DNA from: an uncultured Thiomicrospira sp.
GTDB lineage: Bacteria > Pseudomonadota > Gammaproteobacteria > CAKMZV01
Reading direction: 5' to 3'
NCBI GenBank assembly: GCA_965195345.1
Contig: OZ239628.1
Span: 1,472,001-1,536,000, forward strand
DNA length: 64,000 nt
Shown here: positions 13,534-31,878 of the stretch, piece after piece
Layout of the letters: each line of letters starts with the position of its first letter
How positions within the stretch are numbered: position 1 is the first letter of the stretch
The notes under the pieces: model-generated
What the model saw: the letters and a program-made list of their open reading frames with translations, nothing else
What the model was told of the DNA's origin: nothing
Database searches by the model: none
Position numbers and translations under genes: made by a program

Positions 13534-14295
13534 ATGAAAACAAACCTTTTCCTCAAGGCTATACGCTCTGGGAAACAACAAATTGGCTTATGGCTTTCAC
13601 TAACCAGCAATCACTCTGCTGAAGTCATTGCGCATACGAACTTTGATTGGGTGCTTATCGATATGGAACATTCACCTAACGATCTCCAAAGCGTACTGGC
13701 ACAACTGCAAGTTTTTGAAAACTTTGAAACGACCGTTCTGGTTAGACCACCGTGGAAAGATGCAGTGAAAGTAAAACAACTACTTGATATTGGCGCACAA
13801 GGATTAGTATTTCCAATGGTGCAATCGGCAGAGGATGCAAAACACTTGATTGCATCCACTCGTTACCCACCAGCGGGTATTCGCGGTGTCGGTAGCACCA
13901 CACGCGCTACCGCTTTTGGGCGCGATAAAAGTTATTTTTCTCAAGCAGATAATGAAACTGCTGTTATTTTACAAATTGAAACGCAAAGCGCATTAGAACA
14001 AATAGGAGAAATTTCTAAAATCGAAGGAATTGATGGCGTTTTTTTCGGTCCTTCAGACATTGCCGCCGATATGGGCTTAATTGGACAATCACTGCATCCT
14101 GAAGTATGGCGAAAAATCATGCCAGCTGTTAAAAAATTACAAACCGCTAACATTCCTGTTGGCACATTAGTGCTCGATCCTGAATTTGCCAAAAAACTGC
14201 TTGATGAGGGATTCTCCTTTGTCGCTTGTGGCATTGATGCGGCACTGCTTGCAAGCAGCAGTGATCAACTACTCAAGAAAATGCGCAGTAATTAA
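13534..14295 (+). CDS. HpcH/HpaI class II pyruvate aldolase family protein
   Basis: IDMEHSP, LLDIGAQG, QIET, FFGPSD motifs. Confidence 0.94.
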   Translation: MKTNLFLKAIRSGKQQIGLWLSLTSNHSAEVIAHTNFDWVLIDMEHSPNDLQSVLAQLQVFENFETTVLVRPPWKDAVKVKQLLDIGAQGLVFPMVQSAEDAKHLIASTRYPPAGIRGVGSTTRATAFGRDKSYFSQADNETAVILQIETQSALEQIGEISKIEGIDGVFFGPSDIAADMGLIGQSLHPEVWRKIMPAVKKLQTANIPVGTLVLDPEFAKKLLDEGFSFVACGIDAALLASSSDQLLKKMRSN

Positions 14296-14297
14296 AC
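14191..14297 (+). repeat. 107-bp direct repeat, copy 1 (3' end of the aldolase gene)
   Basis: Matches 16116-16222 with 3 mismatches. Confidence 0.95.
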
Positions 14298-14466
14298 CGT
14301 TAGGGCAATATAAGGGAATGCATGCCATTTCTAAACGCAGTTACTGCTCTAAAGATACTTTTAGCAACCAGAGCTAAACAACAAGAAAAGGGTTACTCTT
14401 TAATCAATTTTTCAATTGGCATCGAAACTTTTGACCTATCAGGTAGTTTAGTGCTAAGTGAACTAC

Positions 14467-14556
14467 TTAATTTTCTAAAAATGTCTTTTCATCTATTACT
14501 GAGTTCATATACAAAGAACTTATCAAACCAACAAGCACTCGCAAAAACATATTCAT
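14467..14556 (-). pseudogene. truncated third copy of the tandem secreted-protein gene
   Basis: MNMFLRVLVGLISSLYMNSVI matches the N-termini of the two paralogues, then DEKTFLEN*. Confidence 0.85.
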
Positions 14557-14630
14557 ATATCCTATTGATTTAGCCATTTTATTAAGTCAATCGGGTTTCC
14601 TTTTTAAACGACTGAGCAAAAACAACTGAG

Positions 14631-15278
14631 TTACTTACATTTTTCCCTTACTTTAAAAACGTAATCACGATCATACGGCACATATTTTTCACCATTAAAA
14701 ACATATGCGACAGGAATTAATGCATATATCCCTATTTCAGGATATGGATCACAAGTAACAATAATTGCTTTAAAAGCATTTTCATAGAATTGAAAATAAT
14801 AGGATGGAAAATAATCGAATGTTAATAACAACGATGAATCTATTTGAAATATTTTTTTAAATTCTCCTTTTTTAACTTGCATAAATATTCTAACAAAATA
14901 TTTAGTTTCAAAAATTTCGCTTACGACTACATCGTATAAACCATCATCATTAATATCTAAATGCTTCAAGTTAACTTCATCACCTGAAAATATGGGTTGG
15001 TCAAGTTCTATAATCTTTTCATTTTCTATGATAAGCGGAATCGACTTATAGTGGCTTGTTTCATTAGGAAATACATTAGGTGCTAAATAAACATTTAGAA
15101 TATAAACGCCTTTTGAGATTTTCTTAATACCTAAAGGGAAACTGGTCGAATACCCCCTTGATTGAATATTTTCAAGTACGGTTTGGGGTATATTGTTACT
15201 TGGTATATTTCCACCTATTACTGAGTTCATATACAAAGAACTTATCAAACCAACAAAAACTCGCGAAAACATATTCAT
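14631..15278 (-). CDS. hypothetical secreted protein, tandem paralogue A
   Basis: 215 aa; signal-like N-terminus; DINDDGLYD Ca-binding-like loop; near-identical to 15354-15992. Confidence 0.85.
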   Translation of the reverse strand: MNMFSRVFVGLISSLYMNSVIGGNIPSNNIPQTVLENIQSRGYSTSFPLGIKKISKGVYILNVYLAPNVFPNETSHYKSIPLIIENEKIIELDQPIFSGDEVNLKHLDINDDGLYDVVVSEIFETKYFVRIFMQVKKGEFKKIFQIDSSLLLTFDYFPSYYFQFYENAFKAIIVTCDPYPEIGIYALIPVAYVFNGEKYVPYDRDYVFKVREKCK

Positions 15279-15353
15279 ATATCCTATTATATTGAGCCAT
15301 TTTAATGAGTCAATCGGGTTTCCTTTTTAAACGACTGAGCAAAAACAACTGAG

Positions 15354-15992
15354 TTACTTACATTTTTCCTCTACTTTAAAAGCGTACTCACGATCATACG
15401 GCACATATTCTTCACCATTGAAAACATATACGACAAGAATTACTGTGTATGCATAACCCTCCATGTCAGGATATGCATCACAAGTAACAATAATTGTTTT
15501 AAAACCATGTTCATTCAATGGAATATTATTAAATTTCAATGGCAACGATGAATCTACTTGAAATATTTTTTTAAATTCTCCTTTTTTAACTTGCATAAAT
15601 ATTCTAACAAAATATTTAGTTTCAAAACTTTCGCTTACGGCTACATCGTATAAACCATCATCATTAATATCCAAATATTTCAAATTAACCCCCTCACCTG
15701 AAAATATGGGTTGGTCGAGCTCTATAATCTTTTCATTTTCTATGATAAGCGGGATCGACTTATAGTAGCTTGTTTCATTAGGAAATACATTGGGTGCTAA
15801 ATAAGCATTTAGAATGTAAACACCTTTTGAAATTTTCTTAATACCTAAAGGGAAACTGGTCGAATACCCCCTTGATTGAATATTTTCAAGTACGGTTTGG
15901 GGTATATTGTTACTTGATATATCTCCACCTATTACTGAGTTCATATACAAAGAACTTATCAAACCAACAAACACTCGCAAAAAAATATTCAT
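15354..15992 (-). CDS. hypothetical secreted protein, tandem paralogue B
   Basis: 212 aa paralogue; repeat unit 723 bp including a conserved intergenic spacer. Confidence 0.85.
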   Translation of the reverse strand: MNIFLRVFVGLISSLYMNSVIGGDISSNNIPQTVLENIQSRGYSTSFPLGIKKISKGVYILNAYLAPNVFPNETSYYKSIPLIIENEKIIELDQPIFSGEGVNLKYLDINDDGLYDVAVSESFETKYFVRIFMQVKKGEFKKIFQVDSSLPLKFNNIPLNEHGFKTIIVTCDAYPDMEGYAYTVILVVYVFNGEEYVPYDREYAFKVEEKCK

Positions 15993-16115
15993 ATATTATT
16001 ATTCAGAATCTGTAAATGTTTAAACTGTGTCACTTTTTATAATTTCATGCATAACAAATGTTGGCAATTCTTTTTTTCCACTGCATTGTATGCTTCGTTG
16101 CCTAAAGTGGTAGGG

Positions 16116-16222
16116 AAAAAATTGCTTGATGAGGGATTCTCCTTTGTCGCTTGTGGCATTGATGCGGCACTGCTTGCAAGCAGCAGTGATCAACTGCTCA
16201 AGAAAATGCGCAGCAATTAAAC
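16116..16222 (+). repeat. 107-bp direct repeat, copy 2 (orphan aldolase 3' end)
   Basis: Encodes the same KKLLDEG...KMRSN* peptide as 14191-14295. Confidence 0.95.
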
Positions 16223-16408
16223 TTGGCTGAGAGGTAAACTTTTGTCTAAAAATAGTAAAAAGTATTGCTTATAATCTTTAGTGCATAAACAATAAATAAA
16301 ACCTTTCAAAGGTTGCCTTAGTCTCTATTCAAAACAGCTCACAACAAAACAATCAACTCCACAAATAAGTTTTATATTTAACCAAATATAAAGAGATAGC
16401 CAATAAGA

Positions 16409-17254
16409 ATGAATAATATAAAAATGTTGCACAGAATTTCTATTGATGGCGAAGCTATTCATGGCATTTATAGAGCAAGACAACTCGGCTTATCTTATGA
16501 TTACGAAGCGTTAATAAATTACCTAGATACACAGTTGAATAATAAATACCTCTTGGGGTCGTTAAAAGAAGCTATTTTAGATTCTCAAATAATCCATTTA
16601 ACTTTTGATGACGGTTATGTTGAACACCTTGAAGTTGCACGGAGATTGAAAGAGCGATACAACTTGAGACGACAAGATATTACTTTTGCAATTAATGTGC
16701 GCAATAGCACTAAAGATTTAAAAATCTGCACAGATTGGTTTTATTTGATGATGCATGATAATAAAGCAGAAACTCTAATAGAACTACTTTACCAATCAGG
16801 CTATAGCAAGAGTTTAACAACTAATGACTTAACATCTTCTTTTGAGGATATTAAATCATTCATTTTCAGGAAAAACATTACCGAGATAAAACAATTTTAT
16901 AAAGCGTTATCTAAAGTAATTAAATTATCGAATCACCCTCCATTTTTTTTGAATGAGTATCAGGTTTTAGAATTATCTAAATTATTTTCAATTGCTTCCC
17001 ACTCTATAAATCATATATATTTAAATAATCTAAAAGACAAGGATGCACTTTATGAAATAGCGCAATCTAAATTAGAATTAGAGAAAATAATTAAGCAAAG
17101 CGTGGATGTATTTTGCTACCCTGATGGAATAAATACAAAGCGTTTACAGGGGTTATGTCAACAAACTGGATATAAATATGCATTATCTATTAAACAAGAT
17201 GCACAGAAGCATAATCCGTACTGCATACCAAGGTTTGCAGGAATTGAAACATAG
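16409..17254 (+). CDS. polysaccharide deacetylase (NodB/CE4) family protein
   Basis: LTFDDGY, IASHSINH, FCYPDG, IPR motifs. Confidence 0.9.
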   Translation: MNNIKMLHRISIDGEAIHGIYRARQLGLSYDYEALINYLDTQLNNKYLLGSLKEAILDSQIIHLTFDDGYVEHLEVARRLKERYNLRRQDITFAINVRNSTKDLKICTDWFYLMMHDNKAETLIELLYQSGYSKSLTTNDLTSSFEDIKSFIFRKNITEIKQFYKALSKVIKLSNHPPFFLNEYQVLELSKLFSIASHSINHIYLNNLKDKDALYEIAQSKLELEKIIKQSVDVFCYPDGINTKRLQGLCQQTGYKYALSIKQDAQKHNPYCIPRFAGIET

Positions 17255-17353
17255 CCGTAGATAATTTAGTGATTCATGATGAGATGCTCTTTTACAGGAA
17301 TAATATTGAGAATAAAGGTGCGTTAGAAAGAGAACGTATTTCAAATACCAGAT

Positions 17354-17476
17354 TTTTGTGAAAATCATGTTTTCATAGGAGCTAATTCAACTGTTCTACC
17401 TGAATGTGTTGTAGGTGAAGGAGCCACAATAGGAGCAGAGCATGGAAAAGGTTATGCAGAAGAAAGCCATGTATAA
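17354..17476 (+). pseudogene. fragment of a hexapeptide-repeat acetyltransferase
   Basis: Frame reads CENHVFIGANSTVLPECVVGEGATIGA; no start, upstream in-frame stop. Confidence 0.7.
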
Positions 17477-17632
17477 ATGGGGTAGATTTTGATAAATGGT
17501 CTAGAGAAAGATTAAAGCATACAGGTAATATTAGGCAACACAACAAAAGTAAAACTGATAAATTAGTCCCCGTTAGTGATATTGATATGGTGTTGAGTAT
17601 TCAATTGTTCGTTAGGATAGAATTAGGGCAAT

Positions 17633-17791
17633 ATGAAAGACATCTGGATAGTTGATAAGATTGCTGACAATCTTCAAGAAGTGAACAATAATTCCTTTTC
17701 AGAAGGGCATCAGCCTTTAGGACTTACAGCTGGTGGATATTTATCACATGCGAAAGAAACTCAAGAATGGATAAGTTTGAGAACAATCTGA
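17633..17791 (+). CDS. small hypothetical protein or gene remnant (52 aa)
   Basis: MKDIWIVDK...WISLRTI*, ends 6 nt before the NAT start. Confidence 0.35.
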   Translation: MKDIWIVDKIADNLQEVNNNSFSEGHQPLGLTAGGYLSHAKETQEWISLRTI

Positions 17792-17797
17792 TTTTTC

Positions 17798-18631
17798 ATG
17801 AATTTCGAAAATACATTATTAGATAAAAAAGAAATAGAATCTTTTCTGCAATCCATTAATGTACATCAAAATACTGACCAACTAATACAGTTAGAGCACA
17901 TTATTAAAGGAGTTATCTATAACATTCCATTTAATAATTTATTTCTATTAAACTCTCAAAGTATAAGACCTACTAGTCAAGATGTGATTAACCTCATGTT
18001 AACGGGTCAAGGTGGTTTATGTGATGTCATGAACCCTTTTCTTTATCTAGTATTTAAATCATTAGGTTATGAGATCGCATTCATGTCAGCGTCAATGGAA
18101 TTTCCGCATTGCCATATTATTCTAAAAGTTTCGATTAAAGGAAGAAAATACCTAATAGATGCTGGCAATGGATATCCTTATTTAAATCCTTTACCTTTAG
18201 ATGAAGAACGGTTTTTTTCGCCGCGACAATTTTCACATCGCTTATTCAATTACAAAGTTGAATCCCAACAAGGTAAATACTATATGTTTCATAAAACGAG
18301 AGGTAGTAAGCAATGGAAAGCCGATTATAATTTTTATGATAAGAGTGTTTTGTTCTCTAGCTTTGATGACATGCTTAAAAAACAATACACTAAAATTGGT
18401 TGGGGACCATTTCTTAAAAGCATTCAAATAAAAAAATGGACTAATTCAGGAGGATTGTTTCTAAGAAACAATTTTTTCTGGGATGCAGATAAAAATATTA
18501 AAAAACGAATTAGCAACCCAGCAGAATTACATCATTGTTTGCAGAATAATTTTCATATTGAAATGGAACCATTAAACGTTAATAAAATTTGGAATATTTG
18601 GCAAAGCAATATAATGAATGTGCATGAATAA
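17798..18631 (+). CDS. arylamine N-acetyltransferase family protein
   Basis: IPFNNL, GQGGLC (Cys), HCHIIL (His), LIDAGNG (Asp) triad. Confidence 0.9.
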   Translation: MNFENTLLDKKEIESFLQSINVHQNTDQLIQLEHIIKGVIYNIPFNNLFLLNSQSIRPTSQDVINLMLTGQGGLCDVMNPFLYLVFKSLGYEIAFMSASMEFPHCHIILKVSIKGRKYLIDAGNGYPYLNPLPLDEERFFSPRQFSHRLFNYKVESQQGKYYMFHKTRGSKQWKADYNFYDKSVLFSSFDDMLKKQYTKIGWGPFLKSIQIKKWTNSGGLFLRNNFFWDADKNIKKRISNPAELHHCLQNNFHIEMEPLNVNKIWNIWQSNIMNVHE

Positions 18632-19772
18632 AATCGTAAATAATAAAATTTTTGATATAGACGACTCTAAGTTAGCTGAGTTTTATCAAGAGCATGGCTG
18701 GGTTATTGTGAAAGGTATTTTTAATTCAAACGAAATAAAAAGTCTAAACTTACAGCGGCAAAATATGGTTGAAAAGTATTCTAAAGATATTGGAGTGACT
18801 TTAGAAAAATACCTGTCAGAAATTAATCAATGGAGGGACTTATGGTTGCATGGAGGTACATTTGAAGATGCTATTTTCAACGAAAAAAAAATCCAATCAA
18901 CTGTAAAAAAAGCAATGGACTGGAATGGTTTGCAACTTCTACATGACCACATCATTTCTAAGCCAATTACAAATAATGATAAGATTCCATGGCATCAAGA
19001 CTCTATGTTTTGGCCAGTTGATAGACTCGGTTGCTCAAGTTGGACGGCTTTACAAGACACTTGTATTAATTCAGGATGTCTTGAAATATTAGACTGCAGT
19101 CATAAGAATGGATGTGCAGAACCTATTGATTTCATGCAAGAAGAAAAAAATGATTTTGACATAGGCTTGAAGCATATTCAGTTACCAGTAAAAACTGGAG
19201 AGACTATTATCCTGCACAGCCTAACTTGGCATCGTTCATCACCTAATATCAAAATTAATAATAGAGCTGCCCATATATCCTTATGGATACCTCCTTACTC
19301 TAGATGGCGTCCAGATTTAGTAGACTGGCATCCAATTAATGAATTTGTCGAAACCCAGTCTGGTGAGTATTTAAGAGGTGACAGAAATCCTATTTTTGGT
19401 GAAGTAGACGACTATTCAAAACCTAATAGGGTGATCCATGCAGGAACGAAAAACAAGACTGATGATATTACGATGTTTGATTCAAGTAAAAGAATCAGTA
19501 AACAGCTTTCAAGAATTTTAATGAGAGATGGAGATATCACAGCTTTACTTTCATCAGAAAGGAATAAGAAGGCAATTATTAGCAAAACATCTGAGGCGGG
19601 TATTTGTAAAGATGAAAATCTATTGTCAGAAGTATTGCACAAATTGTGGCTTTCACATGCTGCGTATAAAAAGAATAAGTCCAGAAATGTTTTTAATACT
19701 GCCTATGCTAAATGGTGGCAAATAGCAGGAAAAAATTGGGAAAAAATACACACAAAGAACAACTATGAATAA
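18624..19772 (+). CDS. phytanoyl-CoA dioxygenase (PhyH) family Fe/2OG oxygenase with C-terminal extension
   Basis: FYQEHGW, PWHQD (HxD), SWTALQD, TWHRSSPN (distal His). Confidence 0.9.
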   Translation: MNKIVNNKIFDIDDSKLAEFYQEHGWVIVKGIFNSNEIKSLNLQRQNMVEKYSKDIGVTLEKYLSEINQWRDLWLHGGTFEDAIFNEKKIQSTVKKAMDWNGLQLLHDHIISKPITNNDKIPWHQDSMFWPVDRLGCSSWTALQDTCINSGCLEILDCSHKNGCAEPIDFMQEEKNDFDIGLKHIQLPVKTGETIILHSLTWHRSSPNIKINNRAAHISLWIPPYSRWRPDLVDWHPINEFVETQSGEYLRGDRNPIFGEVDDYSKPNRVIHAGTKNKTDDITMFDSSKRISKQLSRILMRDGDITALLSSERNKKAIISKTSEAGICKDENLLSEVLHKLWLSHAAYKKNKSRNVFNTAYAKWWQIAGKNWEKIHTKNNYE

Positions 19773-20044
19773 AGTTTCAGTAACAGAAGGTTCCGGTTTT
19801 ATTGGCTCTCAATTTAGTGGAGGCATTAATTAGTAGCGGATATTATAGTAACCAATATTGATTTATGGGAATGCAAAAAAATCGTGGAAATGCGTTCAAG
19901 AGAAACAGCAATGTCATCTATATTATTGAGTTCAATGCAACTAAAAACATATTGAATTATGAAGTTCAAATGTCACTTGAAGAAGGTATTAGCAAAACAA
20001 TTCCTTACTACGAAAATATTTGGCAGAAAGTTCAACAGATATAA
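19765..20044 (+). pseudogene. internally deleted NAD-dependent epimerase/dehydratase
   Basis: Starts MNKVSVTEGSGFIGSQ, frameshift, LVEALISSGY; ends LNYEVQMSLEEGISKTIPYY; only about 280 bp remain. Confidence 0.75.
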
Positions 20045-20059
20045 ATTGATTTCTCCAAA

Positions 20060-21388
20060 ATGAAATATGAATTGTGGGTGGGTTTAGCTACATCAAAACC
20101 AGAAAATCTAAACAAGTTATTAACCAGTTTTATAAATAATAATATTGAGGAACTGCCAATTATAAAGAAGCTGAACTTTATAATTTATGTCAATGCTGAG
20201 GAACAATCATTATTCCATGACTTGAGTGCAGTTAAAAATCTGAATTGTTTATTAATACCGAACCAAGAAATCAAATCAAAACCGTTCCAAAAGTTTTCAA
20301 TAGCTCAAACAAGACAGATTATTCATCAAAACTTATTCAAACGAATACATAAAAAATGTAATGTTGTAGCGTGGATCATTGATGATGACACAGAAATTGA
20401 TCATAGAGTAGCTCATTACTTAAACTCTATGCCCATTTTTTTTGAGAACAATATTGATGTGGTTATCAGCCCATGTGATGGGGAATCAGCAAATTGTTTT
20501 TACGCTGGACTTAGGGTTCAACTATTTGACATTTATGAAAATTATAAATGGCTAAAATCTTTACCGCCGAATGACATCTTACCTGATAAAAGTAAAGATA
20601 ATTTTAAATTCCGTAGGCAATATCCAGAATATTATTATGACCTTACACAACTACATAGTGCGCATTTAAAAATCCCTTATTGGTTAGAGCCTGAATTTGA
20701 ATCCGAAACAGTTACTCAAGCAATCACTAGATTATTAGCAAACGCAAATCAATTATTGAACGGAAGAACCGTATCTAGAAAACTAATACATGATGTCCCT
20801 GACAATCTTTTACAACACGCAAAACCCTCAATTAATGCAGGAGGTAATGTTTTTGTGCTGAATGCCACAGCACTACTAACCCCAAACATCACTATCACTT
20901 TAGAAAATAGAAGTGTAAGAAGATCAGATATGATCTGGTTATTGATGAATATATCCATGCATCAAATGAACATTGTATCTACAAATTTGCCTATTATTCA
21001 TTTAGGAAGTAATGAAGGTCAAATCTCTCAAGAAAAAATGATTGACGAGTTGATTGGAGCATCCTTTGTGCACGCATTAAAAGAAATTGTAGGTGACAAT
21101 CACAGCTGGTGCTTTAGCAACCAAGAAAAAAAGAAGTTAGAAAAACTTTTCATAGCAAAGCTAAAACATAGAAACAATTTGTTTTCAGAGAATGTTATTT
21201 ATATAAAACAATTGATTAAAAAAATGCAATCACACCCACAACTAAGGACTTTTGGCACTAAGTGTTTAATTGCTTTTGATGAAAAAATGAACAATATTGT
21301 TCTTGAAGTAAACAAATTCATCTCTAAAGACATTGACCTAGAGTTGTTGTATAAAAACATCAGCAATCAAGTGACAAAAAATGTTTGA
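20060..21388 (+). CDS. hypothetical protein, possible GT-A-fold glycosyltransferase/nucleotidyltransferase
   Basis: 442 aa; SIAQTR..., AWIIDDD (DxD-like), AGGNVF, RRSD; fold call is inference. Confidence 0.6.
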   Translation: MKYELWVGLATSKPENLNKLLTSFINNNIEELPIIKKLNFIIYVNAEEQSLFHDLSAVKNLNCLLIPNQEIKSKPFQKFSIAQTRQIIHQNLFKRIHKKCNVVAWIIDDDTEIDHRVAHYLNSMPIFFENNIDVVISPCDGESANCFYAGLRVQLFDIYENYKWLKSLPPNDILPDKSKDNFKFRRQYPEYYYDLTQLHSAHLKIPYWLEPEFESETVTQAITRLLANANQLLNGRTVSRKLIHDVPDNLLQHAKPSINAGGNVFVLNATALLTPNITITLENRSVRRSDMIWLLMNISMHQMNIVSTNLPIIHLGSNEGQISQEKMIDELIGASFVHALKEIVGDNHSWCFSNQEKKKLEKLFIAKLKHRNNLFSENVIYIKQLIKKMQSHPQLRTFGTKCLIAFDEKMNNIVLEVNKFISKDIDLELLYKNISNQVTKNV

Positions 21389-22406
21389 TAATTACTGTAA
21401 ATTAAGTTATAAAAACCTTGCCCAAGGTGCTTTATACCAGACAGATTCAGATGATAGTTCTTTAAAAATAGTTAGCTCTATGCCATTGGAATCTTTTAGA
21501 AATAAAAAAAATCCTGTTGTTCGTATTCATTCATCTTGTTTTGCCTCAGAACAGATAGGCTCTAGGGATTGTGATTGCAACGACCAATTAAAATCATCAA
21601 TATGGTACATAGCAAATCTATCAAACGGCATTATTTTCTATCTTGATCAAGAAGGAAGAGGTCACGGCACTTCAGGGAAAATTTCTATTATGAATGAAAT
21701 GCATGGCAATAACTTTGACACATACCAAGCATGTGATGCATTGGGATTAGCAGCAGATATTCGAAATTATGATAAAGTGATAAAAATTCTTAATAAATTA
21801 AACATTTATTCAATAATTTTAATCAGCAATAACCCTTTAAAAGAGCAAACATTAACAAATAATGGAATCAAAGTATCGAAACGTGTCATACTCCCTACCC
21901 CTATTAGAGAAGAAAATTTAAACTATCTAGAGTCTAAGAAACAAAAAAAAGAACATAAAATTTCATTGCATAAATTTGACAATGAAAAGAAAATTTATTT
22001 CTATAATCCTAAAGAGGCACATGGTTACCTATCTAACCTATCATTATATGAAATGAAAGTAAATCACTCTAAATGGTACAGTGTAGAGCATTTCTATAAA
22101 GCGCACAAGCATATTAATAATGACATTAATACTGACAAACATTTACGATTTTTAAAACAATTTGAAGCACAAAACGGCATCCATCAAGATTGGGAAGCTA
22201 TTAAAATATCAGTGATGTACACAGCTCTATGCACTAAGTTTACACAGCATGCCGAACTGCATAAGAAACTTATCAAAACAGGTAACGCCCAATTAATAGA
22301 AAAATCCATTAATGACTACTTCTGGGGCATAGGTGAAGATTTCAGTGGTCACAACTGGATGGGCAAACTTCTTATGTACCTTCGAGATAATTTAATTACG
22401 AAATGA
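21381..22406 (+). CDS. GTP cyclohydrolase II-like domain fused to a NADAR (YbiA/RibX, DUF1768) domain
   Basis: VRIHSSC, DCDC.DQL, QEGRG, DIRNY, SNNPLK; then FY...LSN, SVEHFYKA, KFTQH, TG...IE...DYFWG...G.NWMGKLLM. Confidence 0.92.
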   Translation: MFDNYCKLSYKNLAQGALYQTDSDDSSLKIVSSMPLESFRNKKNPVVRIHSSCFASEQIGSRDCDCNDQLKSSIWYIANLSNGIIFYLDQEGRGHGTSGKISIMNEMHGNNFDTYQACDALGLAADIRNYDKVIKILNKLNIYSIILISNNPLKEQTLTNNGIKVSKRVILPTPIREENLNYLESKKQKKEHKISLHKFDNEKKIYFYNPKEAHGYLSNLSLYEMKVNHSKWYSVEHFYKAHKHINNDINTDKHLRFLKQFEAQNGIHQDWEAIKISVMYTALCTKFTQHAELHKKLIKTGNAQLIEKSINDYFWGIGEDFSGHNWMGKLLMYLRDNLITK

Positions 22407-22666
22407 ATATTGGTGTTGAATTATTCGAGATAATGCTAACAGTCATGCTCGTTTTGATTGGGCTATCGCAAGTTTTCATCTTGTCTAACCAAAAGCATCA
22501 AAATTAATTATCTTTGTTGCAAAACTATAGATTGGCAGTGAAATGCTTAGGCAAGGGAAACCTCTCAGAGTTAAACGCCAGCATTTTCATTATTGAATTA
22601 GTTATACCCAATGATGAATATTTATTATATAACTTAACGGAGGAAAATCAGACTAAGAATAGAAAA

Positions 22667-22843
22667 ATGAATAAACCAAATATCTTTGATTGTGGTTCCA
22701 CCGAATTAACACAAGATTCTGTTTTAGCTTATATAGCTTCTTGGGCAGGTGAAAAATATAAAGACTGTTCAGAGTATAAGTATAGTCAAGAATTTTTGAA
22801 GGAAATAATCAGCGAGTTTACCTCGGGTAAGATAGCGCGGTAA
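22667..22843 (+). pseudogene. truncated PD-(D/E)XK nuclease-like protein (N-terminus only)
   Basis: MNKPNIFDCGSTELTQDSVLAYIASWA resembles the N-terminus of PD-(D/E)XK family proteins; stops after 58 aa. Confidence 0.5.
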
Positions 22844-22863
22844 TCCAATCAAAAAGTAATCTT

Positions 22864-23199
22864 ATACACGCACACATAGTTTTAGCACATCCAGAGAAAG
22901 AATATTTCAATGCACACTTATCAGATATCTAGCAACAAGTGCTCGGTGTCGCCGGATGACAAACCACGCTGTCTAACCCCTACGACATGGACTTCGACCC
23001 ATGCGAAGGGTCGCGTCACTACAGCTCTCGCAAAGACGCAAAGGTTTTTCACGCTCAAACCAAACAGCGTTACAACGCAGACAGTGAAACCTTACCAGCA
23101 GAGGTGGAATCGGAAATACAACACTTGCTGGAATGCAATCTGCTGATCGTTTATTTCCCATTGTGGTGGTTCGGCATGCCCGTAATACTCAACAGGTAA
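22864..23199 (+). pseudogene. NAD(P)H:quinone oxidoreductase (flavodoxin-2 family) pseudogene
   Basis: HIVLAHPE...FN, two in-frame stops (TAG, TGA), FPLWWFGMPVIL; start decayed to ATA; 3'-truncated. Confidence 0.85.
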
Positions 23200-23541
23200 G
23201 CCATTCATAGTATCGACATATACTTCCTGTAAATGTTCAGACATTTTTATCGTGTGTAACATCAACTTTGGCTTTAAGAAGGAGAAATGTTTTCAAGTAG
23301 GTTAAATATTGGTTCTTCTCGTGTAAGCACTTCAAAAATATGACATGGTTAATTTAAAATGAGCGGAAGATAAATTAATTTGCGATAATTGTTTAATAAT
23401 TTTTTTGAAAAAAATTGAAAAAATCAAGGTATTCGGATTGCAAAACCTGTTGAAATTACACTTTTTATTTTTGAATGTAACCGAGTATTCCGAGGATAAC
23501 TCAAATGAAGTTAAACGTATTTTAAGATAGGAGATTGATTC

Positions 23542-24195
23542 ATGTCAAATATAGCAGGCAAAGCTTATGCAATGAATGTGATTACTCCAAGTAAAAGAAA
23601 AATAACTTGGATTAATCGTTTTATTTTTATGTTAGCACGTGGACTACCTAGTCAGCTCGCAGGTCTAATGGGTCTTTCTATAATTCATTTTGCTCGGTGG
23701 ATTTTGATAAAACCTTGTCAATGGCCAGATTTAGGTCAAGGTCAGGAAAGTCTGAAAAATGACTATATGATGTTTTGTTCAAATTTTAACGGCACATGGG
23801 ATCAATATATAGATAGCTTTTCAGATGGCATTCCAGATGGGCTTGATCTATTTTGGTATACAGCAACAAAATATCCTAATTCAATTCCTATTAAACCGTT
23901 TAAAAGCTATATCACTGCTAATCAGATCGATACTAACTATTACTATAACGCTACTCCCGGTGCTGCACAAAGAGATATTATATGTGCGATGCGTGTTTAT
24001 AGTGAGTTGCTCGCTCTGTCAAAAAAACACGAAAATGAAGATGCCGAGGCGTTTCAAGATTCTTATCAAAAAGCTTTAGCCAAAGTCCAAAATTGTTTGG
24101 GTGATATGGGTTATGCTCCATTAGCAAGTTTGGCGACAGAGAGGGCAAGCATAAATCATGAGTCTTTTCTTAAAGGACAGAAGACTTTGAATTAA
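23542..24195 (+). CDS. conserved hypothetical protein, DyP-associated
   Basis: 217 aa, AGGAG RBS, IHFARW...YMMFCSNFNGTWDQYID motif. Confidence 0.85.
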   Translation: MSNIAGKAYAMNVITPSKRKITWINRFIFMLARGLPSQLAGLMGLSIIHFARWILIKPCQWPDLGQGQESLKNDYMMFCSNFNGTWDQYIDSFSDGIPDGLDLFWYTATKYPNSIPIKPFKSYITANQIDTNYYYNATPGAAQRDIICAMRVYSELLALSKKHENEDAEAFQDSYQKALAKVQNCLGDMGYAPLASLATERASINHESFLKGQKTLN

Positions 24196-24244
24196 AGAAG
24201 ACAATGAATATTTTAAAATTTTCAAGAAAATAGTGAGATAAAAA

Positions 24245-25255
24245 ATGCCAAATTTTGATACAGGACATTATTTTTTAACAACTCTTGCGCCTATAAAAAA
24301 AGGCACAATGGTTAATAATGATAAAGAAGTGCTTTCGTTTGCACAAAATTTACAAAGAGTTTTGGACACTTTGCCAACGGCTCTGCAATCTCCAGCGACA
24401 GAAAAAGTGGGAATAAATAGCCCATTTGTACGAGAAAAAAGCACACATTTTTGTAGATTCACTATTATTAACAATGTCGTTTTTAATGGTCGAAATAAAT
24501 CAAATGTTCTGTGGCGTGTTCTTGAAAAGATTAACCCTCTTATTCCTAATCATGTTGATAGTTTAAAGAGCGAATACCTGATGTTTGTCGTTGATTTTGA
24601 TGCTGTAATGAGTATTGGTGATTCGTTACCCGACACCTTGAGTCTACATGAGCAAAATGAAGTACGCAATGCTTACGCTAAGAGATTATGGCAGCATTTA
24701 CAGACAGAAATACAAAAAATATATAGTAATTGTGTTGGGTTTGAAAAAGTTGAAACTGCAGAAAATTTTGCACAGTATATAGAAAAATGTCAGATAGAGA
24801 CTACTATGTCATTTAATGACTATTGGATTAACCCGCCAACACTTCATCGCTTGTCAATACCTATGCTAGCAGCTTTAGTGGGAACTCCTATTGTGGTGGC
24901 TCTTGTCAGTTTGCTCTGCTTTATTTTTGGTAGATCACATATTCCTATTTTAGGTTGGTCAAGTGGCTGGAGTCTTGCCTTAGGTAGTCTATCAATTGCT
25001 ATTGCCCTGTATGTTGCCTATCTTTATATATTGTGGAATGGTCGTAAACCTATGTCACCAGGCAAGTACGCAGATCTACCATCTGTTTTAAAATCACTAT
25101 ATATTCAACAGAATTTCAAACAGTTTGCCATAGACGCCCAATCTATGAGTAAAGACGATTTATATAACAATTTTGGGGAATTTTTAAAACAGCATAAATT
25201 GCATCAAAAAAATTCCCCAACGCAAAATGCTGGCGTAATCGATCTTAAAGGGTAA
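24245..25255 (+). CDS. conserved hypothetical membrane-anchored protein, DyP-associated
   Basis: 336 aa; THFCRF...YLMFVVDFD; two hydrophobic helices near the C-terminus. Confidence 0.85.
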   Translation: MPNFDTGHYFLTTLAPIKKGTMVNNDKEVLSFAQNLQRVLDTLPTALQSPATEKVGINSPFVREKSTHFCRFTIINNVVFNGRNKSNVLWRVLEKINPLIPNHVDSLKSEYLMFVVDFDAVMSIGDSLPDTLSLHEQNEVRNAYAKRLWQHLQTEIQKIYSNCVGFEKVETAENFAQYIEKCQIETTMSFNDYWINPPTLHRLSIPMLAALVGTPIVVALVSLLCFIFGRSHIPILGWSSGWSLALGSLSIAIALYVAYLYILWNGRKPMSPGKYADLPSVLKSLYIQQNFKQFAIDAQSMSKDDLYNNFGEFLKQHKLHQKNSPTQNAGVIDLKG

Positions 25256-25296
25256 AAAACTTTGATAATATTTAGCAGTATACAAGGAGCATAATC

Positions 25297-26940
25297 ATGG
25301 CACATCATATTGATTTAGATGATATTCAAGGTAATATTATTAGAGGGTACGGTCGATATAGCTTTCCGAAGGCACGCTATTTTTTCTTACATATTGAAGA
25401 TGCGTCCGCAGGTCGAAAATTTATTAATAAGGTCACACATAAAATAACAACGGCGGCTCACTGGAATTCAGACAAGCCTCTTGTAACATTAAATATTGGA
25501 TTTACCTTTACGGGATTGATGCAATTATCTTTGCCCATAAGAACATTGCAAGCTATGCCCAATGATTTTATTGAAGGCATGAAAGCTAGGGCATTCATTT
25601 TAGGAGATGATACAAACTATAGTCTTGATAATGATAAGTGGTGCGCACATTGGGATCCGATTTGGAAAGAAAATCGCACTGAAAATAATAAAAATAATAA
25701 AAATAATGTGCACATTTGGATATCCATAAATGCGCAAGTACATGAGGGTACGGACGAAGCAGTCCCTGCATTAGAAGAGCAAACAGAGTGGCTTAGGAAT
25801 GTTTGTGAAGAATTACAGCAGAAGGTCCGTATTTTGACAACTAATGGACAAAAAGGAAACGAAGAATATCAGTCAGCTTCTGCTATTTTTGATACCCTTC
25901 CCAATGGACTAAAAGTGCCAACAGCTAAAGAGCACTTTGGTTTTACTGATGGGATTGGTAATCCTGTTTTTGAAGGTCAATTTCCTGAAGAGGTCATGAA
26001 AAAACGTGTTATAGGTTCAGGAAAATGGATGACTAAGTCTCAAGGTTGGCAACCGCTTGCAACGGGTGAGTTTATACTTGGTTATCCAGACGAGAGCCAA
26101 GAGCTACCACCAACGACTGTACCATGGAATTTTACACGAAATGGTACTTTTATGATTTATCGTAAACTACATGAAAATGTGGATACTTTTGCAGAAGTTA
26201 TCGCAGAAGAGGCAAAAAACTATGCTGAAATCATGAATATTGATATTGAGCAGGCTGAAACAACCTTAAAAGCCAAGGTAGTTGGTCGGTGGCCTGATGG
26301 TGTCCCTCTTTCTCTCGTACCAACATACCAAGATTGGATAGCATTTAAAAAAGAAAAAGGATTTGACAATCCTAATCCATTAGAAGCGGCCATTTCATTT
26401 CGAAATTATTACTTTTCGGATGAACCCGCTAATTTTAAATACGGCGATGATATGCAGGGTATTAAGTGCCCTGTTACTAGTCATTTACGCCGTGCTAACC
26501 CACGAGATTACCTAGATCCCCATAATAAATCTAAGGGTAATAACGCTGATGCTACTACGCAATTGAGCAATAGACGGCGCATATTACGTCGTGGACTTCC
26601 CTATGGCCTCCCCGAACTGGGTAAGGGTAACAATCAAACTGAACAGGGTGTTATATTTATGGTTGTATGTACTAGTATCTTTAGGCAGTTCGAATTTGTA
26701 CAACAGCAGTGGATGGAGTATGCATTGGATTTTAATGCTGGTAATAATACATGCCCTTTAATAGGCAACCATATTAAACATAAAAATCATATTGTTCCAT
26801 CAGATCCTACGAGCAAAAAAATGCCTTATGTTATGAGCGATTTAAAAAATTTTGTTGAAACACGTGGTGGTGATTACTTTTTTATTCCGTCAATTAGTGC
26901 CTTGCAAATGATGGCAATGGGAATCATTGATCCAACTTAA
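25297..26940 (+). CDS. Dyp-type (dye-decolorizing) heme peroxidase, long form
   Basis: DIQGNI, EHFGFTDGIGNP (GxxDG), SHLRRANPR (proximal His), RILRRGLPYG, QFEFVQQQW, GGDYFFIPS. Confidence 0.95.
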   Translation: MAHHIDLDDIQGNIIRGYGRYSFPKARYFFLHIEDASAGRKFINKVTHKITTAAHWNSDKPLVTLNIGFTFTGLMQLSLPIRTLQAMPNDFIEGMKARAFILGDDTNYSLDNDKWCAHWDPIWKENRTENNKNNKNNVHIWISINAQVHEGTDEAVPALEEQTEWLRNVCEELQQKVRILTTNGQKGNEEYQSASAIFDTLPNGLKVPTAKEHFGFTDGIGNPVFEGQFPEEVMKKRVIGSGKWMTKSQGWQPLATGEFILGYPDESQELPPTTVPWNFTRNGTFMIYRKLHENVDTFAEVIAEEAKNYAEIMNIDIEQAETTLKAKVVGRWPDGVPLSLVPTYQDWIAFKKEKGFDNPNPLEAAISFRNYYFSDEPANFKYGDDMQGIKCPVTSHLRRANPRDYLDPHNKSKGNNADATTQLSNRRRILRRGLPYGLPELGKGNNQTEQGVIFMVVCTSIFRQFEFVQQQWMEYALDFNAGNNTCPLIGNHIKHKNHIVPSDPTSKKMPYVMSDLKNFVETRGGDYFFIPSISALQMMAMGIIDPT

Positions 26941-26967
26941 AATAAGCCAAAAAAATCAGATAATTTT

Positions 26968-28317
26968 ATGAATGTTTTAATTTTAATTTGGCGTTATATA
27001 TTAAGTTTATTAGATGCATTAAGGGCTATTTCTTGCTTGCTCTATTTAACAGTGCGTTGTTTGTTTGGCAAACATACTTTTAAGATGAACTTTTCACAGT
27101 TATTTGATCGAGTTGCAACTCAACGTCTTGTTTTTAGTGTTCTTCGTATTTTTAAGCCTAACTTGTCGCTTGCTAAAATTATTTTCAAATCATATCATAA
27201 TACAGGAACTGTTCTCGTTACAAGACGGCAGGATGTCTTAGATGTACTTTCGCGTAATGCTGACTTTGAAGTTACCTATGGTTCTAGAATGAAAAAATTG
27301 ACCGATGGTGATAACTTTTTTTTAGGTATGCAACCTTCTGCAGATTATCAAAGAAATGTTTCAATGATGCGTTTGGCTGCGCGGCAAAGTGATGTTAGTA
27401 GCATTGTTGTTCCAAGAGCTAAGATTATAGCGCAAGATGCTATTAATCAGTCTAAAGGAAAAATCGACCTTCCAACAGAACTTACAAAAAAAGCACCTTG
27501 GGATATGGTTGCGACTTATTTTGGCACTCCTGGTGAAAATCCTGAAATGATGCAGCATTGGGCCACGACTTTATTTTGGTATTTATTTAACGATGTAGAT
27601 GCGAATGACTCACTTGATAAAACCTCTTTGGGCATAGCAAGGGACCTGTGTGCTTACTTAGATAAAACAATTCAAGCGCGCAAAGACAACCCTAATTCTG
27701 ATGATGATTTAATCAATAGATGCTTATCGTTACAAACAACAAATCCAGATATTATTACCGATATAAACATTCGTAACAATCTACTCGGGTTAATTATTGG
27801 CGCTATACCAACGATATCCAAAGCATGTTGTTTTGCTATAGATGAGCTATTTCGTCGCCCAGAAGAACTGGAAAAAACAATGCAAGCGGCTAGGAATAAT
27901 GATGATGATTTAATGGCACAGTACTTGTGGGAAGCATTACGATTTAACCCTCTTAATCCCATTATATTTCGTCGTGCTGCACGCGATACCACGATTGCTA
28001 GAACGTCTCTACGTCAGCAAAAAGTTAAGCAAGGGCAAATGGTTCTAGCAGCAAATCTTTCAGCAACTTTTGATAGAAAAGAAATACCTTCTCCAAATGA
28101 TTTTTTGGTAAATAGAGAATGGGAAACATACATTACTTGGGGCTATGGTATGCATAAGTGTTTTGGAGCAACGATCAATAAAGCAATCATTCCAACGATA
28201 TTAAAACCGTTATTGTGTACAAAAAACTTAAGAAGAGCACCTGGAAAAGCAGGGAAGATAGATACAGAAAACACCCCTTTCCCTATGCATTTTCATGTTG
28301 AATTTGATGTAAGTTAA
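26968..28317 (+). CDS. cytochrome P450
   Basis: EALR (ExxR), WGYGMHKCFG heme-thiolate motif, atypical I-helix GAIPT, hydrophobic N-terminus. Confidence 0.94.
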   Translation: MNVLILIWRYILSLLDALRAISCLLYLTVRCLFGKHTFKMNFSQLFDRVATQRLVFSVLRIFKPNLSLAKIIFKSYHNTGTVLVTRRQDVLDVLSRNADFEVTYGSRMKKLTDGDNFFLGMQPSADYQRNVSMMRLAARQSDVSSIVVPRAKIIAQDAINQSKGKIDLPTELTKKAPWDMVATYFGTPGENPEMMQHWATTLFWYLFNDVDANDSLDKTSLGIARDLCAYLDKTIQARKDNPNSDDDLINRCLSLQTTNPDIITDINIRNNLLGLIIGAIPTISKACCFAIDELFRRPEELEKTMQAARNNDDDLMAQYLWEALRFNPLNPIIFRRAARDTTIARTSLRQQKVKQGQMVLAANLSATFDRKEIPSPNDFLVNREWETYITWGYGMHKCFGATINKAIIPTILKPLLCTKNLRRAPGKAGKIDTENTPFPMHFHVEFDVS

Positions 28318-28332
28318 TGCAAGTATTGAGTT

Positions 28333-28640
28333 ACTCCCCCTCGTATTAGCACTCTTTGGCATTGACAATCCATTGAATGGAACCATCTTATAGACGCGTG
28401 CTCAACTTGCTAATAAAAAACCACCATTCAATGTCAACAAGGGCTTCTCCATCTTCAAATATTGATTTGTATGTAATAGTTTTCACGATCTGCAACAAGA
28501 TTTAATGCATTTTCTTTTGTAGCAATTACTGGTCAGATAGGGTCACCAATCCGAAATGTAATGGTGAATGCATTCATAAGTCGACATTACCTCCGTATTC
28601 AATTGAATACGAAAAAAGAAGCCTTTGCGTTCTCAGAACT
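28333..28640 (-). pseudogene. possible decayed VOC/PhnB-like gene
   Basis: Broken frames reading FRIGD and FEDGEALVDIEWWFF...*DGSIQWIVNA; weak similarity only. Confidence 0.25.
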
Positions 28641-28944
28641 TGCTTGAGTGTGAACTGCAATTGTTCAAGCATATAAAATAAATCAAAAATAGCAAATGTT
28701 TATCCACCTTAGCTCCCAATTTTTGACCACACCTTTACTTTCAACTTTACATCATATCTATAAGTGATACTGGTTTTTTCTGTACATAGCATAGCGTAAA
28801 ATCGAATGCTCCTACGCCCTTTAAATAATTTGAAAGAGGCTCATCGCTATAGGGATTATCCGCACAAAATAGTGCCATGTTTCTACCACTTAAACTGAAG
28901 AAACTACAAGTCTTTTTTAAGTCTTAATTACTCGTGCTGATTAT

Positions 28945-29151
28945 TCATCTTATTTTTTCTACTTCCTTAGCTTGATCGATAAAAGCTGATAGTGATTTTA
29001 AAATATGAACTATGCTAAAAATGAAAATGCCATGTTGGACACCAATATGATTAAATTCTCTAAATATGTCATGAGCTGAAGTAATTAGCAAGACTATACC
29101 AACAAATAATTTTAACCATCTATTTTGAGAAAAACGTATCAACCAAGACAT
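28945..29151 (-). CDS. small membrane protein
   Basis: 68 aa, two hydrophobic helices, AAGGA RBS. Confidence 0.7.
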   Translation of the reverse strand: MSWLIRFSQNRWLKLFVGIVLLITSAHDIFREFNHIGVQHGIFIFSIVHILKSLSAFIDQAKEVEKIR

Positions 29152-29491
29152 GTTTTATTTCCTTCTAATTATGAGTGACATCCTTTCCTCTTTGCTGCAA
29201 GCAACCTTATTTGGGCAATAAAAATTGATTTTATGTACCTATTATAATTCTAAAACCCAATTATCCCTTTTCTCTCAGTTTCTCTCAGTTAAATTTGACA
29301 AACAAAAATCTCCTTTAAACCTTGATACTTTGAATTATTATAAATTATCTTTTAAATAGCTAATATTTTTTAGCAATAGACTTTAATTAAATCAAGTGAT
29401 TAATTGTCATCCAATGAAGCAAGGCTTAAGATTTTGTGGGAGCATGACGATAATATAAACTATTGTAAGCTACCCTGCCTCATTGAGGCAT

Positions 29492-29670
29492 TTAGAACAT
29501 ACATTCTTGAGTTTTATTGTGAATATTTGTCCTTAAATTTAAGAGCACTATTGGTCCATTATGATTCCTTATCATATACGCCAGGTATCCTAGCGTTTCA
29601 ACCATCATTGCATAAGTTGATGGTCTACCAATCCCCCACATGCGTTTAGACGCTTAACAGGAGAAACCTC
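29492..29670 (-). pseudogene. type IA DNA topoisomerase fragment
   Basis: EVSPVKRLNA, frameshift, GIGRPSTYAMMVETL; GIGRPSTYA is a hallmark TopA motif. Confidence 0.7.
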
Positions 29671-29741
29671 TATTTTTAAGTGTGACAGCTAAAGGGTAGT
29701 CTACAATATGAATTCTTTAGAAAAATCATTATGGTGTTACT

Positions 29742-30305
29742 ATGAAAATTATCGATCATATTTTATCTTTTTCTGATTTGAAAGATGTGGACGAAGGGGC
29801 AGAACCCGCTCCGCATCAACCGGAAATATTACTCATTGCATGTGTTGATGCAAGAAAAGATCCTATTGCTGATTTAGGCATTCCTAAAGGCAAAGCCATT
29901 ATCATGAGAAATATTGCCGCTCTTGTTTCTCACCATTCAGTGCCACTTAACGAGAGGTTAATCATAAGTTCCACTTTAGAATTTTCTGTTAAGATATTGA
30001 AAGTAAAACATATTGTTGTTATGGGGCACACACATTGTGGAGGCATAAAGGCTTCCTTAACAGGAGTTGATTTACCATCTTTAGACCTTTACTTAAGAAG
30101 CTTTTTACCTGTTGATGATACACTTAATGATGAAAATTTATCATTAGAAGAAAAATGTCGCCATCTTGAAGAAAAAGCCGTTGCCTTTAGTGTTGATAAT
30201 CTAAAATCGTATGACTTTATTAGCGACGCCGTTAATAATGGTTCTTTATCACTGCATGGTTGGGTGCTTGATACTGCCAGCGGTAAGATTAATGTTGTTA
30301 CTTAG
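29742..30305 (+). CDS. beta-class carbonic anhydrase
   Basis: CVDAR (CxDxR), RNIA, GHTHCGG, LHGW motifs. Confidence 0.93.
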   Translation: MKIIDHILSFSDLKDVDEGAEPAPHQPEILLIACVDARKDPIADLGIPKGKAIIMRNIAALVSHHSVPLNERLIISSTLEFSVKILKVKHIVVMGHTHCGGIKASLTGVDLPSLDLYLRSFLPVDDTLNDENLSLEEKCRHLEEKAVAFSVDNLKSYDFISDAVNNGSLSLHGWVLDTASGKINVVT

Positions 30306-30376
30306 GGCGTGTTAAAAGACGCTTATTGTCGAACCGTCGAACCAGCATTCTCACCAAGACTGCCTCAGCATCAAAA

Positions 30377-30408
30377 TAAAAAAAGACACCGGTGGCGTCC
30401 CTTTTATT
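30377..30408 (-). terminator. hairpin with A/T tracts, probable original tRNA-Ser terminator (possibly bidirectional)
   Basis: AAAAAAA-GACACC-GG-TGGCGTC-CCTTTT imperfect stem adjacent to the att relic. Confidence 0.5.
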
Positions 30409-30409
30409 C

Positions 30410-31787: not shown

Positions 31788-31878
31788 TGGCGGTGAAGGA
31801 GGGATTCGAACCCTCGATGCGCTATTAACACATACTCCCTTAGCAGGGGAGCGCTTTCAGCCGCTCAGCCACTTCACC
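31788..31878 (-). tRNA. tRNA-Ser(GCT)
   Basis: GGTGAAG...CTTCACC-GCCA; anticodon arm CTCCC-CTGCTAA-GGGAG; long variable arm. Confidence 0.97.

Follow-up and report, generated by a model that had tools for sequence, protein, structure and literature searches.

A RibA-NADAR fusion on a low-GC island of an uncultured Thiomicrospira sp. as candidate committing enzyme of a mobile, putative aminopyrimidine-tailoring cassette

Analysis of a 64,000-nt stretch of DNA from an uncultured Thiomicrospira sp. (contig OZ239628.1, positions 1,472,001 to 1,536,000; "the window" below) focused on one intact gene at 21381..22406 on the + strand (ATG to TGA, 341 aa), which encodes a RibA-type GTP cyclohydrolase II (GCH II) domain fused to a NADAR domain. 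We propose, with moderate confidence, that this fusion carries out the committing step of a small cassette that is mobile by horizontal transfer and is not an enzyme of riboflavin synthesis. On balance, we also favor the view that the cassette serves a tailoring function, turning GTP into a free, probably 5-formylated aminopyrimidine which is then glycosylated and acylated, and that vitamin B2 is not its product. The gene set, referred to here as the class A cassette after the clade to which the fusion belongs, is apparently mobile and apparently undescribed.

Several comparisons identified the two domains. The GCH II domain occupies approximately aa 40 to 197 (21498..21971, + strand), as judged by Pfam, HMMER, MAFFT, and model superposition, and the YbiA-family NADAR domain, a COG3236-type N-glycosidase, occupies aa 199 to 341 (21975..22403, + strand). 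The Pfam matches were PF00925 (GTP_cyclohydro2) at aa 40 to 169 (E value of 2.1e-30) and PF08719 (NADAR) at aa 206 to 338 (E value of 9.4e-28). Among the NCBIfam models, the N-terminal half scored below the curated RibA cutoffs (141 versus 148 bits for NF001591, and 112.5 versus 205.85 bits for TIGR00505), and the C-terminal half scored above the cutoff of TIGR02464, "riboflavin biosynthesis intermediates N-glycosidase" (84.1 versus 73.7 bits). HMMER searches against solved structures matched Escherichia coli RibA (2bz0, E value of 4.5e-21) and E. coli YbiA (2b3w, E value of 1.8e-19). An AlphaFold2 (AF2) model built on 29 homologues, with a mean predicted local distance difference test score (pLDDT) of 87.1, superposed on 2bz0_B with a Z score of 18.8 and a root mean square deviation (rmsd) of 2.2 Å over 166 residues, and on YbiA 2b3w with a Z score of 17.9 and an rmsd of 2.3 Å over 143 residues. 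An earlier note on this DNA, made from the letters alone, had called the gene a RibA-NADAR fusion, and Pfam, NCBIfam, and the two superpositions all bear this out.

Further analysis of the catalytic residues showed an intact metal site and a substitution at one conserved position. The E. coli ribA product (from NC_000913) was aligned with MAFFT, independently of the HMMER alignment, and the two methods agree on the register: Cys53 (codon at 21537-21539), Cys64 (21570-21572), and Cys66 (21576-21578) correspond to RibA Cys54, Cys65, and Cys67, respectively, and Arg128 (21762-21764) corresponds to Arg128, all on the + strand. The zinc ligands and the arginine described in the earlier note as intact are therefore intact by both methods. 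The three zinc-binding cysteines and the Arg128 equivalent have recognized roles in RibA, which Ren and colleagues are said to have worked out in 2005. Both methods also pair Met104 (codon ATG, 21690..21692, + strand) with RibA Tyr105, exactly where an ungapped comparison had first put it, and both place a one-residue insertion immediately after it. Judged by conservation, no class-specific conserved tyrosine was found elsewhere, Tyr130 and Tyr182 being common to the canonical enzymes. The motifs of the domain are HSSC..SE, DCDCNDQL, and EGRGHG. In the NADAR domain, Glu307 (codon at 22299-22301, + strand) lies in the last strand, within the motif LIEKS, and aligns with the E of LVEHT in E. coli YbiA. 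The last-strand Glu was kept in 33 of the 33 class A rows that have a NADAR domain. According to PMC11125620, a Glu in this strand defines the YbiA family, whereas an Asp is found in the BC4488/DarT-linked NADARs and a His in phage NADARs.

How common the substitution is was apparent when a profile built from six fusions was run against single genomes, one for each species. At least 600 stretches matched, at least 549 of them encoding relatives, and the best 80 loci were kept. The 56 loci with a match over the cyclohydrolase part were extracted, the 24 matching the NADAR half only being left out, and the 56 genes were aligned with the query and E. coli RibA. Four groups emerged. Class A consists of 35 loci plus the query and is marked by the motifs HSSC..SE, DCDCxDQL, and EGRG[HQ]G and by the one-residue insertion; one further locus (L047) is truncated. 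Canonical fusions of approximately 350 aa, from 13 Vibrio, Photobacterium, and Thalassomonas loci, carry HSECLTGD and RCDCGFQL. Six long GCH II-like proteins (L055, L067, L070, L076, L089, and L093; the R-group) carry an Arg in the Tyr105 column and the motifs HSSC..TSE and CDCDCAEQL, a "non-canonical" type that they share with class A; by their sequence motifs, they probably belong to the same type of protein as the UTP cyclohydrolase of known structure (PDB 7eev/7ej3). Finally, a stand-alone Streptomyces protein (L056) has Met at the site and the motifs HSAC..SE and DCDCADQL. Tyr was present in 13 of the 13 canonical fusions, and the 36 class A rows read V 29 times, I 3 times, and L, C, M (the query), and Y once each.

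A tree built from the cyclohydrolase domains by maximum likelihood unites every canonical enzyme, the 13 fusions among them, in a single clade (support of 100/94) that excludes class A. The R-group falls with canonical RibA and not with class A, and L056 sits on a long branch away from class A. The query pairs with L019 (100/90), and this pair joins L049 and L050 (100/96). L019, from a genome (G004) in the window's own taxonomic family, is both the closest relative of the query among the best 80 loci and the sole Tyr-bearing row of class A. When 1.84 billion cluster representatives were searched with a profile, there were 43,206 hits with E values of ≤0.001 to either domain, and 26 proteins were fetched from the best 150. 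At the switch site, 22 class-A-like rows taken from protein clusters (18 of the 26 fetched plus P0002-P0006) had V in 13 cases, L in 4, I in 2, C in 2, and Y in 1; the cluster rows and locus rows overlap and are not independent samples. Met is thus one of several aliphatic residues found at the site across the whole clade and not a singular event. The Tyr-to-Met change of the earlier note stands as far as the Met itself is concerned, but it is not a one-off, since 35 of the 36 class A rows are without the Tyr and the nearest relative has it.

Other RibA-NADAR architectures were seen in the cluster search. P0055 (489 aa), P0046, and P0048 show a third motif type, HD[AR]C..TSE, with Tyr at the site, and P0055 carries a C-terminal cytidine/dCMP-deaminase-type domain, giving a RibA-NADAR-deaminase chain.

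The fusion gene is the last of a set of five genes, all on the + strand, in the order CE4-like, NAT, PhyH, GT-A, and fusion. Directly upstream, and sharing the first 8 nt of the fusion gene with its own 3′ end, is a gene (20060..21388) whose 442-aa product falls into no Pfam family. This protein contains the motifs WIIDDD (DxD type), YYYDL, NxGG, and RRSDM, and in an alignment of 20 such modules, W..DDD, YYYDL, N.GG, and RRSDM.W are invariant or nearly so. Its AF2 model (pLDDT of 87.2; predicted template modeling score of 0.86) gave 231 Foldseek matches at E values of ≤0.001, and the best of these were all GT-A glycosyltransferases: AvpGT in first place, hyaluronan and cellulose synthases, GlfT2, TarP, and RmlT. 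According to PMC11959488, AvpGT glucosylates nucleoside analogues. The template modeling scores were modest (0.3 to 0.5), and because of this, the protein is predicted to be a GT-A glycosyltransferase by its modeled fold and not by specificity. Upstream of it is a gene for a PhyH-type Fe(II)/2-oxoglutarate dioxygenase (18618..19772, 384 aa), the HxD...H triad of which aligns with those of phytanoyl-CoA dioxygenase and MysH. The start of this gene overlaps by 14 nt the end of a gene for an arylamine N-acetyltransferase (NAT)-fold enzyme (17798..18631, 277 aa), the Cys, His, and Asp of which align with the triad of human NAT1. The first gene of the set encodes a polysaccharide deacetylase (CE4)-like protein (16409..17254, 281 aa) with TFDD and HSxxH motifs, a candidate deformylase or deacetylase. 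By these motifs, the NAT, PhyH, and CE4 partners and the NADAR domain all look catalytically competent.

Comparison with other genomes showed that much of this arrangement is conserved. The 11 window proteins were searched with blastp against every open reading frame (ORF) of ≥90 aa in the best 80 loci. Of the 36 class A loci, 34 carry a homologue of the 442-aa protein and 28 a homologue of the NAT; none of the 20 other cyclohydrolase-carrying loci has a homologue of the 442-aa protein. PhyH homologues were limited to three loci (L019, L050, and L051) and CE4 homologues to five, so that these three are the only ones of the 80 loci to share the PhyH type of set with the window. The genes at 14631-15992 (− strand), 22514-22843, and 23542-28317 had no homologues in any of the 80 loci and for this reason were left out of the cassette. 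Pfam analysis of 53 neighbors in 11 class A loci showed a recurrent operon composed of genes for a GT2 protein, the fusion, an AsnB-type amidotransferase, and a NAT-fold protein. A 770- to 1,230-aa protein with an N-terminal GT2 domain is encoded directly upstream of the fusion in 8 of the 11 loci, the AsnB-type protein directly downstream in 8, and a small NAT-fold protein matched Pfam in 8; a polysaccharide deacetylase, carbamoyltransferase, or epimerase is sporadic. The 442-aa protein is homologous to the C-terminal module (approximately 400 residues) of the GT2 proteins of approximately 1,100 aa in other cassettes. The window shares with the four-gene cassette the RibA-NADAR clade, the GT-A module upstream, and the NAT-fold partner, but here the GT-A module has a gene to itself and no GT2 part at its N terminus, PhyH takes the place of AsnB, CE4 is added, and the NAT is longer.

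The strongest evidence in this analysis that these activities serve one pathway is the existence of natural single-chain fusions. The GT-A module was found N-terminal to RibA-NADAR in one chain in 10 of the 30 proteins examined. A good example is P0016 (789 aa; GT-A, GCH II, and NADAR), which amounts to the two overlapping genes of the window joined. P0019 (1,054 aa) combines GT-A, GTP_cyclohydro2, NADAR, and Acetyltransf_2, as confirmed by Pfam, with a NAT part that shares 41.7% identity with the NAT of the window, and P0012 (1,147 aa) combines GT2, GT-A, GCH II, and NADAR. That the fusion is tied to the adjacent cluster had been suggested before; its adjacency is conserved, and the modules are fused in other organisms. 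In the cluster around L019, the NAT is fused to a hexapeptide-repeat acyltransferase domain, and that cassette is flanked and interrupted by insertion sequence-type transposase/integrase genes (rve and HTH_Tnp_1, at 5592-6413 and 11161-12163).

From the observed domain identities, residues, linkage, and fusions, we infer each chemical step of the following route. First, the cyclohydrolase domain would bind GTP, free pyrophosphate, and open the imidazole ring. GTP is most likely the substrate because the sequence of the domain matches RibA models much better than it matches PRK07198, a model of approximately 420-aa GTP cyclohydrolase II-like proteins (141 versus 28.9 bits). With an aliphatic residue in the position of Tyr105 (Met in the query), the domain probably releases formate slowly or not at all, and the outcome would be a 5-formamido nucleotide (formamidopyrimidine [FAPy], or amino-formylamino-ribosylamino-pyrimidinone phosphate [AFRPP]) instead of diamino-ribosylamino-pyrimidinone phosphate (DARPP). 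Second, the fused YbiA-type domain would cut the N-glycosidic bond, giving ribose 5-phosphate and free 2,6-diamino-5-formamido-pyrimidinone. Both PMC5312566 and bioRxiv 10.1101/2020.02.26.966523 describe COG3236 enzymes as cleaving early riboflavin intermediates at the N-glycosidic bond. Third, and in no set order, the GT-A enzyme may add a sugar, the CE4 protein may strip the formyl group, the NAT may acylate the freed arylamine, and the PhyH enzyme may hydroxylate. The formyl group could mask the 5-amine, which would otherwise be very reactive.

The location of the cassette is consistent with a genomic island. The fusion lies in a low-GC stretch at approximately 14 to 31 kb of the window (31 to 36% GC compared to approximately 40% for the genome), the right edge of which is marked by a tRNA-Ser(GCT) gene (31788..31878, − strand). 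The DNA from 12 to 32 kb was searched in four relatives (G001 to G004): the two genomes of the same genus matched it at this tRNA-Ser and nowhere else (96% identity), and across all four, the only other matches were the PhyH gene and part of the GT-A gene in G004. The cassette was not found in G001 or G002 by the two tests applied, the PF00925 profile and the 12- to 32-kb DNA search. No integrase was seen in the stretch from 14000 to 31900. Between 31391 and 31760 there are short fragments of ORFs, possibly relics of genes. The same island carries, at 23542-28317 on the + strand, genes for a 217-aa protein, a 336-aa protein predicted to have membrane helices, a DyP-peroxidase-like protein (547 aa), and a P450-like protein (449 aa), and this co-directional four-gene group looks like a separate module. 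A promoter and terminator scan of 15.9 to 23.6 kb found fewer sites than in shuffled sequences and was uninformative. The sequencing runs listed as containing this stretch comprised four DNA-type entries from one study and no RNA entry.

Some observations weigh against the route proposed above. First, the switch site across the query's own subclade reads M, Y, L, L, V, and V, which looks, from the alignment, like relaxed constraint and not like a tuned switch; one member of this subclade could well release formate. Second, the CE4 gene is missing from most four-gene cassettes, so that deformylation is no universal step. Third, the His or Gln of EGRG[HQ]G, which is specific to the class, might take over a catalytic role. 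Fourth, the motifs HSSC..SE and DCDCxxQL are held in common with UTP cyclohydrolase-like proteins, which makes GTP a probable but not a certain substrate. Fifth, the fusion is plausibly, by its residues, the only catalytically competent GCH II in the genome. Finally, many partner genes (those for GT2, AsnB-like, epimerase, carbamoyltransferase, and CE4 proteins) also resemble glycan-modification genes.

The first two of these points bear on an alternative that keeps the same cassette and treats Met104 as neutral: formate would be released, DARPP made, 2,5,6-triaminopyrimidinone freed by the NADAR domain, and this base acylated directly by the NAT. NAT enzymes would need a free arylamine, which a deformylated base would offer, and the nearest relative of the query retains the Tyr. 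However, the Tyr is missing from nearly the whole of class A, although it is kept in all 13 canonical fusions and in E. coli RibA, and no other class-specific tyrosine stands in for it, Tyr130 and Tyr182 being those of canonical enzymes. Work attributed to Spoonamore and colleagues in 2006 reportedly identified Streptomyces coelicolor SCO6655, with Met120, as a FAPy-forming GCH II in which the formyl group is retained, tying loss of the Tyr to formyl retention. We regard a neutral Met104 as unlikely.

Whether the fusion could instead be the organism's working RibA, supplying riboflavin synthesis with its first intermediate and perhaps assisted by a formamidase activity of the CE4 protein, depends on the riboflavin background of the host. 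The genome is a single 1.92-Mb contig, 99.7% complete, with the window at 1472 to 1536 kb. Its rib genes are at 274 to 276 kb (ribE/ribBX), 24 kb (ribD), and 1701 kb (ribH), and no rib gene was found within the 64-kb window. The earlier statement that no rib genes are nearby and that this is not a riboflavin enzyme accordingly holds in the sense that the rib genes are far off and the fusion is not a riboflavin-operon enzyme. The genome has only two PF00925 matches, the fusion and a 364-aa RibB-like protein encoded beside ribE. The C-terminal domain of the latter is without the three Cys residues, the EGRG motif, and the Arg, and because of these losses it is classed as a dead "RibBX" type. Neither a GTP cyclohydrolase III nor a homologue of BrbF, which PMC9478397 describes as a creatininase-type formamidase, was found in the host genome. 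This background, with ribD, ribH, and ribE all present, favors a working RibA, as does the membership of the Vibrio RibA-COG3236 fusion in a riboflavin operon. On the other hand, two genomes of the same genus and one family member (G001, G002, and G003) have ribD, ribH, and the dead RibBX and do without the fusion or any other RibA. Among the cultured carriers of a class A gene, 5 of 5 also have a canonical RibA (>180 bits), and one Photobacterium carries both fusion types. Moreover, the gene sits in a low-GC island beside a tRNA, and the fused glycosidase would destroy the very intermediate that riboflavin synthesis needs. A working RibA therefore appears quite unlikely to us.

The family as a whole keeps ribD, ribH, ribE, and the dead RibBX, and no GCH II is recognizable in 3 of the 4 relatives. 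Six more genomes at the class level showed nothing but a Cys-less RibBX. This RibA-less family raises the question of which enzyme opens GTP there.

A third alternative is that the substrate is not GTP but UTP, as for the Urc1-type UTP cyclohydrolases, or a sugar-modified guanine nucleotide, and that another ring-opened base is made. The motifs common to class A and the six R-group rows are in its favor, and the model of the fusion fits the UTP cyclohydrolase 7eev (Z score of 18.6) as well as it fits 2bz0. Sequence comparison points the other way: the NF001591 score far exceeds that for PRK07198, and phmmer gave an E value of 4.5e-21 to 2bz0 compared to 2.3e-5 to 7ej3. The tree likewise places the R-group with canonical RibA, apart from class A, and the Met-bearing stand-alone Streptomyces protein L056 has closely similar motifs. 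We consider such a substrate very unlikely.

Last, a role in conflict, either as a GTP-depleting anti-phage effector, as the earlier note had suggested under phage defense, or as a NADAR antitoxin reversing guanine ADP-ribosylation, is extremely doubtful: NADAR domains, including the YbiA type, hydrolyze ADP-ribosyl-guanine and can be antitoxins (PMC11125620), the gene is on a genomic island, and PADLOC gave a weak match to PDC-M42C (54 bits), but this is a generic NADAR-domain model, PADLOC found nothing for 14 other proteins (11 window neighbors and 3 Psychrobacter cassette proteins), the anti-phage NADAR model NF053876 scored 63.4 bits against a cutoff of 240, Pfam showed no ADP-ribosyltransferase-like neighbor, and the conserved partners are biosynthetic enzymes.

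The proposed tailoring cassette resembles several known systems in part. A RibA-COG3236 fusion is known from the riboflavin operons of Vibrio vulnificus and V. cholerae (Frelin et al. 2015, cited in PMC5312566). It is like the window protein in having two domains in the same order, an about equal length (350 aa), and a YbiA-family glycosidase. However, the Vibrio fusion has HSECLTGD, RCDCGFQL, and the Tyr, is encoded within ribD-ribE-ribA-ribH, and lies inside the canonical RibA clade, whereas the query, which falls outside that clade and has neighbors other than rib genes, shows HSSC..SE, DCDCNDQL, Met, and the one-residue insertion. Identity with the Vibrio-type riboflavin-operon fusion was therefore rejected on motifs, Tyr, clade, and rib location. 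It also follows that the fusion architecture pointed out in the earlier note, while real, is not new as such.

SCO6655 shares with the query the zinc-dependent GCH II fold and a Met at the switch site but is a stand-alone protein, not known to carry a NADAR fusion, and belongs to a different gene cluster. A 2026 review ascribes a new function to the third S. coelicolor copy. For vicine and convicine in faba bean, a route has been proposed that consists of the GCH II VC1, COG3236 hydrolysis, deamination, and glucosylation (bioRxiv 10.1101/2020.02.26.966523). The cassette would follow the same logic, from GTP to a ribosylaminopyrimidine, a free aminopyrimidine, and then a glycoside. The vicine route differs in being a plant route with a canonical, Tyr-bearing RIBA-type enzyme and unlinked genes, whereas in the window cassette the steps are fused or clustered and tailoring by NAT, PhyH or AsnB-like, and CE4 enzymes is added.

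In the ArnC/ArnD modification of lipid A with aminoarabinose, a GT2 enzyme transfers a formylated amine and the CE4-family ArnD then deformylates it. Here too, a GT-A/GT2 transferase is paired with a polysaccharide-deacetylase-family enzyme able to remove a transient N-formyl group, and ArnD offers a precedent for the deformylation step, but the substrates are unrelated and the likeness is an analogy at the family level.

No description of the cassette was found in the literature searched, subscription journals and supplements lying outside the search. What was already known, then, is the RibA-NADAR architecture and the reported Tyr-less, FAPy-forming GCH II. What is new is the form of the cassette that has PhyH and CE4 genes and a split GT-A gene, the tally of switch-site residues across the clade, in which the nearest relative turned out to carry Tyr, the single-chain GT-A-RibA-NADAR-NAT fusions, and the RibA-less host background.

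We put forward, tentatively and as a wider possibility, that class A cassettes make an undescribed family of GTP-derived aminopyrimidine glycosides, a microbial counterpart of the plant redox toxin vicine, and have been passed on horizontally between bacteria and archaea of marine habitats. The missing RibA Tyr might then be the key adaptation, keeping the dangerous 5-amine formyl masked until, after glycosylation, a CE4 or NAT-fold enzyme unmasks and reacylates it. If the tailoring route is true, the first reaction of riboflavin synthesis would have a second, non-vitamin fate, with a product nobody has seen, and the genes for it would form a compact mobile set carried by numerous marine bacteria as well as Poseidoniales-type archaea. 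The natural variant series V, I, L, M, C, and Y at the residue credited with formate release would make the mechanistic claim directly testable, and the GT-A-RibA-NADAR-NAT fusions offer single-protein entry points for its biochemistry.

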